From Candidatus Cloacimonadota bacterium (GTDB lineage: Bacteria > Cloacimonadota > Cloacimonadia > JGIOTU-2): 32,967 nt of DNA. Shown here one piece after another: positions 2,820-18,598 of the stretch. Within the stretch, counting starts at the first letter, position 1. Each line of letters begins with the position of its first letter. The stretch is taken from NCBI GenBank assembly GCA_014384665.1, contig JACNFI010000041.1, positions 1 through 32,967 on the forward strand, given 5' to 3'. The notes under the pieces were generated by a model. That model had not been told where the DNA came from and did no database searches. It saw only the letters and a list, made by a program, of their open reading frames with translations. Both the position numbers and the translations under genes were made by a program.

Positions 2820-3703
2820 AAAATTTTTGGATAATGATTATAGCTTTTTTATTAGCCCTTACTATTTGGGTTGAAATAAAGCTAGCAAAAGTTCAAAGGC
2901 TTAATATAAAAGTTCCAGTAGCAATTACAAATTCTCCAACAGCTTTAATTCCTCTATCTATTGAACCGGGATATTTAGACCTGACCATTGAAGGAAAAGG
3001 ACGGGAGATTCTGTTATACAATTTAGAAAAAAACTCATATTATATTGATTTAAAAGATACTCATTTTGGGAATAATTATAAACCTATAAATTATGAAGAA
3101 CTTAAGAATCTTGCAGATAAAAATCTTAAAATTGTGCATAAAGCTCCATCTAAAGAAATTATTATCTATATGGATATTATGATATCTAAGTTAGTTCCAG
3201 TAAAACCGACTTTTGTTGATGATGAAAGCAGGATATATTTTATTGAAAATAGTCTTGCCGTTTTACCTGAGAATATTCAGGTTAAAGGTCCGAAAACATT
3301 AATTAAAGATATTTGTGAAATAGCCAGCTTACCTTATAATATAAAAAAACAGGATAATCTAACCCTTAATTTAATTCATCCTTCAAATACATTAATTACT
3401 TATGATAAATACACTGTAGATATCAAGAAAAGGGAGCCTAAAATAATTCAAAAGACCATCTCTGTGATACCTATATTATCAGATAAAAGTATTGAGATAT
3501 TTCCAAATTCTGTGAGTATTAAAATTTCAGGAGAAGAAAAGATTTTACAAAATATTCAACCTGAAGATTTCATTGCGGAAATAGATACATCCGTATCTTT
3601 GGAGATAGACAGTTTAGTAGCAGTGCAAATTTATCTGCCAGATGGAGTAGAACTAATTGCTCAAACTCCAACCTATGTAAGAATTAAAAATGTTCAAAGA
3701 TGA
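2816..3703 (+). CDS. YbbR-like repeat protein, membrane anchored
   Basis: N-terminal TM segment followed by 3-4 repeats of a beta-rich unit ending in the pattern V.V.G....L..I (NIQVKGPKTLIKDI, SVSIKISGEEKILQNI). It has a 4-nt overlap with the upstream gene. The family call is by eye only. Confidence 0.5.
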   Translation: MKNFWIMIIAFLLALTIWVEIKLAKVQRLNIKVPVAITNSPTALIPLSIEPGYLDLTIEGKGREILLYNLEKNSYYIDLKDTHFGNNYKPINYEELKNLADKNLKIVHKAPSKEIIIYMDIMISKLVPVKPTFVDDESRIYFIENSLAVLPENIQVKGPKTLIKDICEIASLPYNIKKQDNLTLNLIHPSNTLITYDKYTVDIKKREPKIIQKTISVIPILSDKSIEIFPNSVSIKISGEEKILQNIQPEDFIAEIDTSVSLEIDSLVAVQIYLPDGVELIAQTPTYVRIKNVQR

Positions 3704-3972: not shown

Positions 3973-5013
3973 ATGTCATCCTATTTATTAAGGGAAATAG
4001 ATTTGAAAGATATAATAGTTTTAGGGATAGAGACATCCTGTGACGATACATCCATAGCAGTCGTGGATAGTAATTTCCATATCTATTCAAATATAATTTC
4101 TTCACAAGTAATACATAAGAAATTTGGAGGAGTAGTTCCTGAACTTGCTTCAAGAGAACATATAAAGGGAATAATACCCATTATGGATATTGCTCTCAAA
4201 CGAGCAAAATTGTCTTTGGACAAAATTGATGCCATTGCTGTCTCTACTAATCCCGGGCTTATCGGTTCTCTTTTAGTTGGTCTTTCTTTTGCCAAAGGTC
4301 TTGCGTATAGTATGGGAAAACCATTGATTTCAGTAAATCATATTTTAGGACATGTTTTCGCTAATTTTTTAGAGCATCCAGAAATAGAATTTCCATTTAT
4401 TGCATTGATTGTTTCTGGAGGGCATACTGAGTTAGTAAATTTTTCATCTTTTGATAACTTTGAAGTAATTGGAAGAACAGTTGATGATGCAGCCGGGGAA
4501 GCATTTGATAAAATTGGCAAATTATTAAAACTCTCATTTCCAGGAGGTCCAGAAATTGATAATCTTGCAAAGAATGGTGATAAACATGCAATTAGTTTTC
4601 CATTACCGATGATAAAACAAGCAAATTATGATTTTAGTTTTAGTGGATTAAAAACCTCTGCTGCTTTATATATTCAAGACAACAACATAGATTTAAGTAG
4701 TGAGAATCTATATAATTTTGCAGCAAGCTTTCAAAATTCTATTGTTCAGGTTCTATTTAAAAAAACTATATCGGCTATTAAAGAAAATAACATAAAAACT
4801 TTTTTACTTGCAGGTGGGGTTGCAGCAAATTCTGAGTTAAGAAAAATTTTTGATGATTATGCTAATGAACATAATTTGAATGTATTCTATCCATCTCAAG
4901 AACTTTGCACTGATAATGCTGCAATGATAGCTTGTGTCGGTATTTTTAAATATAAGAAAAAACAGTTTGCTGATTTAAACATTAACGGTTCTTCTATAAA
5001 AGGTATAAACTAA
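3973..5013 (+). CDS. tsaD: tRNA N6-adenosine threonylcarbamoyltransferase TsaD
   Basis: GIETSCDDTS, HILGH and GGVAAN motifs of the Kae1/TsaD family. The ATG at 3973 is preceded by aaaaggtga. The 19 upstream codons in the track look spurious. Confidence 0.9.
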   Translation: MSSYLLREIDLKDIIVLGIETSCDDTSIAVVDSNFHIYSNIISSQVIHKKFGGVVPELASREHIKGIIPIMDIALKRAKLSLDKIDAIAVSTNPGLIGSLLVGLSFAKGLAYSMGKPLISVNHILGHVFANFLEHPEIEFPFIALIVSGGHTELVNFSSFDNFEVIGRTVDDAAGEAFDKIGKLLKLSFPGGPEIDNLAKNGDKHAISFPLPMIKQANYDFSFSGLKTSAALYIQDNNIDLSSENLYNFAASFQNSIVQVLFKKTISAIKENNIKTFLLAGGVAANSELRKIFDDYANEHNLNVFYPSQELCTDNAAMIACVGIFKYKKKQFADLNINGSSIKGIN

Positions 5014-16413: not shown

Positions 16414-16578
16414 TAGTGTCTGTCCGTAAAATCAGATCCTTGCGAATGGTCCCCAATTTAATTGGGGATGGGCCTTCGCAATGGTTGATTCGCTCTACAA
16501 AACCATTCCGAATCCCCAATTGAATTGGGGATCCAACCATTCAGAAGGTCTAAAAAATGAGTTTACGGACAGATACTA
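16414..16578. repeat. Inverted-repeat-bounded triple-hairpin element 3' of gadB
   Basis: Inverted repeats tagtgtctgtccgtaaa (16414-16430) / tttacggacagatacta (16562-16578). H1 tccccaatttaattgggga (16450-16468). H2 aatggtt/aaccatt (16480-16486 / 16501-16507). H3 atccccaattgaattggggat (16512-16532). Confidence 0.75.
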
Positions 16579-16695: not shown

Positions 16696-16724
16696 TTGAC
16701 ATAAAAAATATAAGAAAATTAAAT
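16696..16724 (+). promoter_or_regulatory. Sigma-70-like promoter candidate (TTGACA-N17-TTAAAT) just upstream of repeat copy 1
   Basis: TTGACA at 16696-16701, 17-nt spacer, TTAAAT at 16719-16724. The same aaaaacttgaca box recurs at 16820-16831 upstream of the cassette. Confidence 0.3.
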
Positions 16725-16734
16725 AGGTTTCTCA

Positions 16735-16796
16735 TAATTCCCTCCTTTATCCCGATGTTATCGGGATACAGCCGCCTCCCCGGCGGCTTTTTTTTT
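16735..16796 (+). terminator. 61-bp double-hairpin + T9 module, copy 1 (identical to 18538-18598)
   Basis: taattccctcctttATCCCGATgttATCGGGATacaGCCGCCtccccGGCGGCttttttttt. Hairpins at 16749-16767 and 16771-16787, T run at 16788-16796. Confidence 0.7.
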
Positions 16797-16950
16797 CCAT
16801 ATCATATATTTATTGGCTAAAAAACTTGACAAATAATTAAATTTTAAAGTTAAGTATAAATAAAAATAGAAAATTTTTATTATATTTTTAAAAAGTTTAA
16901 TAATAAATGAACACATTTTTATAATCTGTAATAAATATAAGAGAGGATAA

Positions 16951-17736
16951 ATGACATTAGTTATATCAGTAAGAGTACCAGATGGTATTGCAATTGGAGC
17001 TGATAGTTTATCAACAACTCACTCTAATTTGAGATTTAAAGGTAACATAGAGACCAAATGCCCAAAATGTGGTAAGAGAATTTTGCTTAAAGACCTACCA
17101 GGACCTCCGATTCGTATTCCTGTAGCTAATTTTCCCACTGCACAAAAGTTATTCCCTATAAGAGAAAATTTCGGAGTTGGTTTTTACGGTATGTCTATAA
17201 TCAATGGTATAACAATATATAACCATATTAAAAGTAATAACAAGAAGTGGGAAAATTTTACAGAGGTATCTCAACTTGCAGATGCTTTAGGAAAATATTT
17301 TCATAATGAATTAAAAAAACAAATCAAGGATATTGAAAAAGCACCTGATAGTTTTATCCCATTAGGGTTTCAACTCGTGGGATTTGATGAGGAATCAAAG
17401 CCCTGGGGACAAACGGTTACTGTTTACCTAGGTAAGAATATTAAAACTGAAGTAAAAGATAAGATTGGATGCAGTTTTGGGGGAGAAGGTTATGTAGTTA
17501 AAAAACTCTGGGAGTTAAGAAAAGAAATGGGTAAAGGAGCACTATATGCAAGCTTTTCTTTGCAAGATGCTGTAGAATATATCGACTTTTTGATAGGAAC
17601 AACAGCAAAATTTCAGAAATTTGCAAATATGATTCCAACGGTGAGTGAACCTGTTGACATAGCAGTGATAACAGGATATAGTGGTTTTAAGTGGATAAAA
17701 AGTAAAGGATATATAAAAATACTTGAAAAGAATTAA
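16951..17736 (+). CDS. HslV/proteasome-beta-like Ntn (threonine) hydrolase with a CxxC-containing insertion
   Basis: The N-terminus MTLVISVRVPDGIAIGADS parallels E. coli HslV MTTIVSVRRNGHVVIAGDG. Also present are the later AQKLFPI Lys, GVGFYGMS, LGFQLVGFDE, GCSFGGEGY and VDIAVITGYSGF. gagagga RBS upstream. Confidence 0.65.
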   Translation: MTLVISVRVPDGIAIGADSLSTTHSNLRFKGNIETKCPKCGKRILLKDLPGPPIRIPVANFPTAQKLFPIRENFGVGFYGMSIINGITIYNHIKSNNKKWENFTEVSQLADALGKYFHNELKKQIKDIEKAPDSFIPLGFQLVGFDEESKPWGQTVTVYLGKNIKTEVKDKIGCSFGGEGYVVKKLWELRKEMGKGALYASFSLQDAVEYIDFLIGTTAKFQKFANMIPTVSEPVDIAVITGYSGFKWIKSKGYIKILEKN

Positions 17737-17751
17737 AGAGAGGAAATTATC

Positions 17752-17973
17752 ATGAATATAAATCGGGATATAATCAAAACTGAACCTTATAGTGAATCAG
17801 GAAAAGAAATTTTTCCGGTAGTACATATTTACTATGAAATTTCTCCACCATCCATTTCCAATCCACAATTTAATTTATCCAATACAACAGATATAATTGA
17901 TGACACAGCTTACTTTGTGAGTCCTCAAGTAGACAGATTTTCAAAAGCGTGGCAAAAACTAGCAAAAAGGTAA
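17752..17973 (+). CDS. Small protein of unknown family; positional candidate antitoxin/adaptor
   Basis: 73-aa ORF with a gagagga RBS 7 nt upstream. It lies 15 nt after ORF1 and overlaps the doc-like ORF. Confidence 0.5.
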   Translation: MNINRDIIKTEPYSESGKEIFPVVHIYYEISPPSISNPQFNLSNTTDIIDDTAYFVSPQVDRFSKAWQKLAKR

Positions 17974-18383
17974 TAAAATATCTCTCAAGAAACGATATTC
18001 TTGAGTTGAATTTCCAATTTGTAAATTATTATGGTGGTATTTATTTCAAAGGTGATTTAAATATAGCTAATGAAAATTCACTAAGCTATCTTTTACATTC
18101 TGTAGATGCTTCATATTTTGGCAAAAAGCTTCATCATTCTTTATTTGAAAAAGCAAGTGCTTACGCTTATTATATTATTAAAGATCACATATTTCACGAT
18201 GGTAATAAGAGAACCGGTATGGCCTCTACAATATTGTTTTTAGAAAAGAATGACTATATTCTTATTCCTGAAATTTCACAAGATGACATAGTTAATTTAG
18301 CTATTAGTATTGAAGATGAAAAAACATCGAAATCAGCACTCGGACTTTGGTTTAAAAGTAATACACAGTTAATCACAAAATAG
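17949..18383 (+). CDS. doc: Doc-family (Fic-fold) toxin
   Basis: Doc signature HIFHDGNKRTG (nt 18186-18218) and the size typical of Doc. The start is uncertain (GTG at 17949 gives a 25-nt overlap with the upstream ORF). Confidence 0.8.
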   Translation: MAKTSKKVIKYLSRNDILELNFQFVNYYGGIYFKGDLNIANENSLSYLLHSVDASYFGKKLHHSLFEKASAYAYYIIKDHIFHDGNKRTGMASTILFLEKNDYILIPEISQDDIVNLAISIEDEKTSKSALGLWFKSNTQLITK

Positions 18384-18537
18384 TAAATTAGTGGTTTTTA
18401 TACTACATTCTTTCGAATAATTACTAATATTTATCTTCTTCATTCCCAACATTTTGCTTGCGCCTTATAAGATTTTTACAAGTGGAAATAGGATAAAGAG
18501 AGAATGTGTACAATTTATATATTAATTATGTATCTTC

Positions 18538-18598
18538 TAATTCCCTCCTTTATCCCGATGTTATCGGGATACAGCCGCCTCCCCGGCGGCTTTTTTTT
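18538..18598 (+). terminator. 61-bp double-hairpin + T8 module, copy 2
   Basis: Base-for-base identical to 16735-16795. It lies 6 nt from the comEC stop on the opposite strand. Confidence 0.7.

Follow-up and report, generated by a model that had tools for sequence, protein, structure and literature searches.

Three co-directional genes in a 32,967-nt stretch of DNA from a Candidatus Cloacimonadota bacterium (GenBank assembly GCA_014384665.1, contig JACNFI010000041.1, analysed at its full length and called the window below) form a compact cassette in which a peptidase of the proteasome fold (ORF1) is followed by a small orphan protein (ORF2) and by a toxin of the Doc family (ORF3). The same trio recurs in distant phyla, always in the same order among the curated loci, and its three members have diverged together. 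We propose that it is a mobile, self-contained tripartite toxin-antitoxin (TA) module, possibly acting by abortive infection, in which the peptidase turns over ORF2. For us belief and doubt are evenly balanced on this reading, of which the action of the peptidase on the putative antitoxin is the step that we infer. The cassette is well worth an experiment, since the trio is the first genomic clue to the function of a large uncharacterised family of proteasome relatives (458 clusters) and provides a testable hypothesis about it. The elements of the cassette are the following.

16951-17736, + strand: ORF1, 261 aa, ATG start, proteasome-fold N-terminal-nucleophile (Ntn) peptidase
17752-17973, + strand: ORF2, 73 aa, ATG start, orphan small protein, putative antitoxin
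17949-18383, + strand: ORF3, 144 aa, GTG start, Doc-family (Fic fold) toxin
18186-18212, + strand: Doc-type catalytic motif HIFHDGNKR, inside ORF3
16941-16947, + strand: ribosome-binding site GAGAGGA of ORF1
17738-17744, + strand: ribosome-binding site GAGAGGA of ORF2, within the ORF1-ORF2 gap

Layout and recurrence of the trio

An original prediction, made by a model from the sequence, had described three co-directional ORFs packed like an operon, and all its coordinates were reproduced, including the exact position of the Doc motif. ORF1 and ORF2 are separated by a gap of 15 nt (AGAGAGGAAATTATC) with the second GAGAGGA inside it, and ORF2 and ORF3 overlap by 25 nt. The GTG at 17949 is the sole canonical start of ORF3 ahead of the conserved Doc core, and it sits in the GCG-TGG codons (17946-17951) of a conserved Ala-Trp pair of ORF2. 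Since the Doc gene of the other triads starts at or past the ORF2 stop codon, this pair is a feature of the protein and not a by-product of the overlap.

The order ORF1, small ORF, Fic gene was found in all five of the longer contigs that encode ORF1 homologs (42-80% identity), with unrelated flanks. A further 146 loci came from IMG/VR, from JGI metagenomes and from GTDB genomes scanned at one per species. Collapsing ORF1 at 95% identity gave 83 close-family lineages, 69 of which had enough downstream sequence to be judged. A Doc gene on the same strand appears within 1.2 kb downstream in 37 of these 69 lineages, in several phyla and in unrelated contexts, which bears out the recurrent association of ORF1 homologs with Doc. 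Six or more named phyla are represented among the hosts of the trio, which include WOR-3, Deltaproteobacteria/Syntrophales, Armatimonadota, Bacteroidota, Spirochaetota and Zixibacteria. An ORF of 61-86 aa occupies the position of ORF2 in every curated Doc-linked locus (18 of 18), and a small ORF is also present in most of the other Doc-linked lineages. The curated triads have an identical gene order, with intergenic gaps of 0-15 nt or overlaps.

The pairwise identities of the three proteins are correlated across triads (r = 0.84 for ORF1-Doc, 0.71 for ORF1-ORF2 and 0.69 for ORF2-Doc; Mantel p = 2e-4 in each case). Median identity is highest for ORF1 (45%), lower for Doc (39%) and lowest for ORF2 (20%), the fastest divergence in ORF2 being the pattern expected of an antitoxin. 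The nucleophile is kept in all ORF1 copies of the triads and the catalytic motif in all Doc copies. Recurrence, co-divergence, preserved active sites and tight gaps together make the trio a long-lived functional unit and no chance juxtaposition. As a separate observation, a small ORF whose tail (GETLRKLSNE) is of a related kind precedes, in locus L032 (4788-5176), a 63-aa ORF resembling an N-terminal remnant of Doc; the locus may represent a decaying triad.

The toxin pair is modular, with Doc exchanged for MazF or PIN-like pairs in sister clades. At loci L108 (3001-4342) and L137 (287-1632) the ORF1-family gene is followed by a different small protein and a PemK/MazF toxin (4e-9 and 4e-26, respectively). 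In L028 (633-1978), from an archaeal metagenome-assembled genome, a PemK gene lies directly 3' of the ORF1-family gene (1e-13), and in L019 a weak PIN-like gene is found downstream of it. The small proteins at MazF, PIN-like and other loci gave no match to the Doc-type ORF2 profile, a difference to be expected if each were specific to its own toxin. A single family of small proteins across toxin types was considered and rejected because of this failure of the profile, the hydrophobic strand and proline seen in them being anecdotal. Equally anecdotal is the end of the small protein of L108 (EAWKNL), which resembles the tail of the Doc-type proteins.

Other members of the family have different surroundings. 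In L030 (4937-8120) a close-family ORF1 lies beside an AAA_15 ATPase and a RelA/SpoT protein, and in two loci of Poribacteria (L024 and L031) two unknown genes lie downstream of a close-family ORF1. The next gene in these two loci is presumably an HsdM methylase of a type I restriction-modification system (our reading of the sequence, unchecked against Pfam). Distant relatives of ORF1, outside the close family, are found beside TIR-domain proteins (L045, 4945-5820, and L055, 4324-4902), and the copies of Saprospiraceae are solitary. Finally, in a subclade of ten loci (L093, L095, L098, L103, L125, L129, L133, L135, L140 and L143) the peptidase is followed by a conserved helical protein of ~65-80 aa, starting with MSYAYxxGQEAxALxYYxK, and no toxin gene is evident, which suggests that the peptidase and its small partner are the core unit.

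The peptidase, the small protein and the toxin

The fold of ORF1 was examined with an AlphaFold2 (AF2) model built from a 24-sequence alignment (pLDDT 86, pTM 0.80). Its top 50 Foldseek matches in the PDB are all alpha or beta subunits of 20S proteasomes (E about 1e-7, probability 1.00, target-normalised TM-score up to 0.68), the strands and helices of the model succeed one another in the S1-S11/H1-H5 order of the proteasome, and among viral models the best match was a phage 'proteasome beta' protein (E = 2.8e-11). By sequence, ORF1 matches no Pfam family (Proteasome, PF00227, included), no NCBIfam family and no PADLOC family even at E <= 1. Its profile reaches only E about 0.2 for the best of the PDB sequences, and in PHROGs only residues 212-255 matched, to a family whose function is unknown. 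Since no curated sequence model matches, it is by fold and active site that ORF1 belongs to the T1 family. The database names of its relatives are 'hypothetical protein', save for two automatic proteasome/HslV labels from JGI.

A profile alignment puts residues 4-30 of ORF1 opposite residues 3-29 of mature yeast beta1, in register, and hhalign does the same for its residues 1-27 and E. coli HslV (a lead only). By these N-terminal alignments, Thr2 is the equivalent of the Thr1 nucleophile and Asp18 that of Asp17; the spacing of 14 between Lys66 and Gly80 equals that between Lys33 and Gly47 of the proteasome. A word-indexed search retrieved 24 full-length homologs, and all 24 of these close relatives start with M-[TS]-L and have invariant D18 and K66 (AQKLFPI). 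Exhaustive HMMER searching of 1.84 billion cluster representatives extended the family to the 458 clusters mentioned above (E <= 1e-3, counted at 50% identity; 47 at E <= 1e-30), mostly of ~260 aa and aligned from residue 1. Among 106 representatives taken from the 50%-identity clusters, position 2 is T in 54 and S in 28, the remainder being N-terminally truncated. D18 is kept in 80/84, K66 in 98/99 and G80 in 91/100 of them, and G178 is near-invariant too. An M/V-[TS]-[LI] start was found in 108 of 150 representatives of the family. The modelled fold and the conserved T2, D18 and K66 thus sustain the predicted Thr/Asp/Lys hydrolase, so that ORF1 is, as far as model and active site can tell, an Ntn hydrolase of proteasome type and, judging from its conserved residues, a catalytically intact one.

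The specific likeness to HslV (ClpQ) proposed for ORF1 holds for the N terminus, where both proteins have the MT-hydrophobic-...-S-V-R...D-G pattern with a Thr exposed after Met removal, as befits two bacterial peptidases of the proteasome family. It does not extend to the rest of the protein: HslV is compact (about 175 aa) and partnered by HslU, whereas ORF1 has 261 aa with insertions, its best structural matches are 20S subunits, and no HslU gene was found in the window or in the related trio loci examined. A survey of the genes of the window confirmed the claim that neither an HslU-type ATPase nor an alpha subunit nor a Phd/YefM gene is present in or adjoining the cassette; of AAA proteins the window showed just one, a MoxR-type ATPase ~6 kb 5' of the cassette. 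ORF1 has an insert of about 33 residues between Asp18 and Lys66, which AF2 builds as a beta-hairpin with low-confidence hinges. Its position is the S3/S4 site, where the specificity lid of connectase is located and where PMI-5 and PMI-6 have insertions as well (PMC8665760). A zinc ribbon, hinted at by a weak match to RNA polymerase subunit P, was discarded, as there is a single CxxC knuckle that is missing in several homologs. Predicted viral contigs of IMG/VR (L066-L074) carry a more distant subfamily of the peptidase (MTIAISLKVNDGLVLAADSA...PTVGGPIEIAAITKHEGFKWI), usually followed by a short ORF.

ORF2 is far more elusive. A search with the single sequence gave one homolog only, in the same trio of a relative, and every member recovered by a profile search of 5.8 billion proteins lies on triad contigs. 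It has no match in Pfam, NCBIfam or PADLOC and nothing significant in the PDB, in keeping with the prediction that it belongs to no assignable family; weak matches to ribosomal protein bL31 (E about 0.5) were taken as chance. The alignment of 18 ORFs of the family reveals a hydrophobic strand-like segment near the N terminus, usually followed by Pro, and a C-terminal motif of approximately I-I-D-x-H-L-x-x-Y-x-x-A-W-x-x-L-A. The core of this motif (F/Y-x-x-A-W-x-x-L-A) is carried by a C-terminal helix, AF2 predicting disorder for residues 1-57 and a helix for residues 58-72. In Phd and in the PanA 'Phd-C' fusion it is a C-terminal helix that neutralises Doc (PMC10440598). Along these lines, ORF2 has the features to be expected of a labile antitoxin whose neutralising element is linear.

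The third protein is the easiest to identify. ORF3 matches Pfam Fic (PF02661) with E = 1.9e-11 and 45.1 bits (cut-off 24) and TIGR01550 DOC_P1 with 53.7 bits (cut-off 38.65), its best PDB relatives are Doc proteins, P1 Doc among them, and it matches the PHROG 'Doc-like toxin' at 3e-22. The motif HxFxDG[NST]KR is kept in 17/17 triads examined. Doc proteins, with HxFx[DE][AG]N[K]R, have a Lys where AMPylating Fic proteins have Gly. By every sequence test run ORF3 is a bona fide Doc-family toxin, and its homology predicts that it phosphorylates EF-Tu and arrests translation. The Doc proteins of the triads consist of the core only (119-151 aa), with no pro-segment. PADLOC matches of ORF3 are limited to the Fic region of larger candidate proteins, and for this reason it was not placed in any defined defence system.

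A possible mechanism and its alternatives

In the mechanism that we favour, ORF3 would be the kinase-type toxin that halts translation through EF-Tu, ORF2 would hold it by means of the conserved C-terminal helix, and ORF1, presumably co-transcribed and translationally coupled with both, would degrade or clip free ORF2. No unfoldase ATPase would be needed for this, since the substrate would be already unfolded. Indeed, 20S-type particles degrade unstructured proteins independently of ATP (PMC8665760), and the lack of an AAA+ partner in the cassette is consistent with ATPase-free degradation. The antitoxin would thereby be labile independently of the Lon and Clp proteases of the host, and once synthesis from the operon stopped, either by loss of the cassette or by phage shut-off, ORF2 would be consumed and Doc released. 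We infer the neutralisation of Doc by ORF2, the action of ORF1 upon ORF2 and the biological role of the whole from the lines of evidence given above. A broader claim, that this is a new class of TA or abortive-infection system with an ATP-independent proteasome-like peptidase as the built-in timer or trigger that consumes a disordered antitoxin, is one that we entertain with slightly more doubt than conviction. Such a module would be portable across phyla, because no host Lon/Clp is needed, and combinatorial, because the toxins that accompany one peptidase family are of the Doc, MazF and PIN-like kinds.

Several observations weigh against this interpretation. The peptidase is not obligatorily tied to the toxin, since 32 of the 69 assessable ORF1 lineages are without Doc, some of them with a small helical partner only and others solitary, and no fusion of ORF1 with ORF2 was found among the 150 representatives. 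The part of antitoxin is assigned to ORF2 by its position, size and motif only; no DNA-binding domain can be recognised in the protein, and hhalign detects no similarity to Phd (probability of 0.3% against P1 Phd). Peptidases of the proteasome family are usually active only as assembled rings, and the insertions of ORF1 may be incompatible with ring assembly. Last, the window is a housekeeping neighbourhood and no defence island.

The strict conservation of the catalytic residues, the place of ORF1 as the first gene of the operon in all cases and the fact that the strongest co-divergence is that of ORF1 with Doc (r = 0.84) would also fit a peptidase directed at the toxin, either inactivating Doc by cleavage in a type-VII-like manner or maturing it, with ORF2 as adaptor or inhibitor. 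We consider this unlikely, as the core-only Doc proteins of the triads offer no pro-segment, folded toxins are poor substrates for a peptidase devoid of ATPase, and the pairing of the same family with the unrelated folds of MazF and PIN-like toxins is hard to fit with specific cleavage. The role of ORF1 might alternatively be non-degradative, that of a specific transpeptidase or ligase like connectase, a monomeric proteasome homolog that owes its sequence specificity to an S3/S4 insertion, or of a scaffold, which modifies, tethers or stabilises ORF2 in the way that SecB stabilises the antitoxin of TAC (toxin-antitoxin-chaperone) systems. The insert, a confident hairpin in the AF2 model, shares the S3/S4 position with the lid of connectase (PMC8665760), the insertions may preclude the assembly of rings, and near the N terminus of the small partners a hydrophobic strand with a Pro after it is loosely conserved. 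However, this strand motif is statistically unsupported across toxin types, neither a ligation motif nor a second substrate is evident, and a pure scaffold would not require the conserved Thr1, Asp17, Lys33 and Gly47, so that we see only a small chance for a role of this kind.

Addiction modules often adjoin genes that they stabilise, and ORF1 could be an independent housekeeping or stress peptidase with an antitoxin-Doc pair merely travelling alongside. That nearly half of the ORF1 lineages are without Doc and some are solitary would agree with this, as would the outcome of a survey describing 22 families of prokaryotic proteasome homologs, which found no informative gene contexts (PMC8665760). 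A complete lack of coupling is nevertheless improbable in our view when all curated triads keep the same gene order with such short gaps or overlaps, the trio co-diverges down to about 33% ORF1 identity, the ORF2 family is found in triads only and the DNA common to relatives covers exactly the three genes. We are also very doubtful about a peptidase that acts as sensor or second effector, plugged by ORF2 until a phage trigger removes it and unleashes both the peptidase and Doc. Neither ORF1 nor ORF2 matches a PADLOC model and ORF3 does so only over the Fic region of candidate systems, the context in the window is housekeeping, and the existence of solitary ORF1 genes argues against an intrinsic toxicity of the peptidase. 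What speaks for a sensor is the company of some relatives: the TIR-domain proteins beside distant ones (L045, L055), the AAA_15 ATPase and RelA/SpoT protein of L030, the putative type I restriction-modification methylase near L024 and L031, and the integrase-like neighbour of one triad on a predicted viral contig. Besides, TA defence systems that contain a protease are known (RosmerTA; PMC10440598).

Read as a TA module with its own antitoxin-degrading peptidase, the trio can be compared with several known systems. It shares with phd-doc of phage P1 and homologs the Doc toxin with HxFxD[AG]NKR, the small upstream gene that overlaps the toxin start, a largely disordered (here putative) antitoxin with a C-terminal helix and the nature of a compact, mobile module. 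Phd-doc, however, has two genes instead of three and relies on host ClpXP/Lon in place of a peptidase of the operon, and the antitoxins found there are Phd/YefM, AbrB, Xre or YhfG, whereas ORF2 is not Phd/YefM and lacks a DNA-binding domain. A protease in a TA operon, with one protease family serving varied toxins and tied to mobile elements and phage defence, has a precedent in ImmA/IrrE (COG2856), with the predicted three-component systems of COG2856, Xre and toxin and with RosmerTA (PMC2701414, PMC10440598). The enzymes there are zinc metalloproteases with HEXXH, to which an Xre helix-turn-helix (HTH) repressor is usually fused or joined as a partner, in contrast to the Thr/Ser Ntn hydrolase without HTH described here; neither HEXXH metalloprotease nor Xre HTH domains were detected in ORF1 or ORF2 with Pfam, NCBIfam and PADLOC. 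Doc is not among the reported partners of the COG2856 systems. In toxin-antitoxin-chaperone (TAC) systems there is likewise a third component of protein homeostasis presumed to govern the fate of a disordered antitoxin, but it is a SecB-like chaperone that protects the antitoxin, while the proteasome-fold peptidase would probably do the opposite, and the gene order differs. None of the papers found in the literature searches connects a proteasome homolog with Doc or TA systems. The layout of proteasome-like peptidase, small ORF and Doc therefore appears undescribed, as had been supposed, while the wider idea of a self-encoded protease in a TA operon has the ImmA/COG2856 precedent.

If the proposed mechanism is true, it would provide the first physiological function for an orphan family of proteasome homologs. 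To our knowledge, no function is known for the proteasome homologs of prokaryotes other than HslV, Anbu, BPH and connectase. ORF1 shares with the orphan families of Fuchs, Alva and Lupas (2021; WPH, PHI, PMI-1 to PMI-6, PHD and others) and with connectase the Thr/Ser1, Asp17, Lys33, Gly47 core, the absence of propeptide and AAA+ partner, and the presence of insertions, including those at S3/S4 (connectase, PMI-5, PMI-6). It differs from them, in a comparison made by description only, in being linked to toxins, no function-suggestive context having been reported for those families (PMC8665760), and none of their accessions is among the cluster names of the ORF1 relatives. A peptidase of its own that degrades the antitoxin would explain how the cassette functions after transfer between distant phyla, and TA systems would gain an enzyme of the proteasome fold as a further kind of third component, next to the SecB chaperone and the ImmA metalloprotease. 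On the practical side, a small, specific and ATP-independent Thr peptidase with a short defined substrate could serve as a tool, like connectase.

Flanking repeats, neighbouring genes and mobility

The cassette is bracketed by two direct repeats, and a promoter-like sequence precedes ORF1.

16718-16795, + strand: direct repeat, left copy, 78 nt, with an intrinsic terminator (stem 16770-16788 and T-run)
18521-18598, + strand: direct repeat, right copy, with a terminator (stem 18573-18591 and T-run), abutting the comEC stop codon
16897-16925, + strand: candidate sigma-70-type promoter TTAATA-17-TATAAT, 26 nt 5' of ORF1, from a consensus match alone

The 5' neighbours of the cassette are an amino-acid permease and a pyridoxal phosphate-dependent decarboxylase (gadC/gadB-like), and on its 3' side, on the opposite strand, there is ComEC and then dxr, cdsA, uppS and rpoN. 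The window matches contig JADHWB010000001.1 of assembly GCA_016783705.1 identically over the 6.8 kb compared. The two copies of the 78-nt repeat are 94% identical, and their terminator-containing core is identical. The terminator of the left copy would end the upstream permease/decarboxylase operon and that of the right copy would end the transcript of the cassette. Homology at the DNA level with the two closest relatives (76-80% identical), which have the cassette in different genomic contexts, is confined to 16915-18380, that is, to the three genes and a leader of about 35 nt. Repeat and homology limits both support the suggestion that the cassette is an insertion between gadB and comEC. No empty site was found in an exact search of metagenome contigs for the core of the repeat, so the insertion is deduced from these two features alone. 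The 78-nt repeat is not present in any of the related loci fetched. A Logan contig of 1802 nt (L156) was considered as an excised circle, its length fitting the spacing of the repeats, and was rejected because it spans 16766-18567 and its ends do not overlap. It is explained by a break of the k-mer graph within the repeat.

The closest relative from WOR-3 (L009) has an unrelated direct repeat of its own around the trio (39 nt, 87% identical, 3106-3144 and 4956-4994), from which insertion between repeats may be a recurrent feature of the trio. Another triad (ORF1 39% identical) is carried by a predicted viral contig, IMGVR_UViG_3300028593_000039 (L064/L115; 4001-6648 in L064), and the gene directly 3' of it is one that we take, from an unchecked reading of the sequence, to be a tyrosine integrase.

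Promoter-like sites are no commoner than in shuffled sequences, which makes the candidate at 16897-16925 a weak one. An Rfam scan of the window and its intergenic regions found no RNA families, and no tRNA genes were found. Directly 3' of the decarboxylase stop codon there is a long imperfect palindrome (16414-16578) that matches no Rfam family. It folds as one extended hairpin of -81.8 kcal/mol (z = -9.9 against shuffles) and could be a terminator, an element of the miniature inverted-repeat transposable type or a structured RNA.

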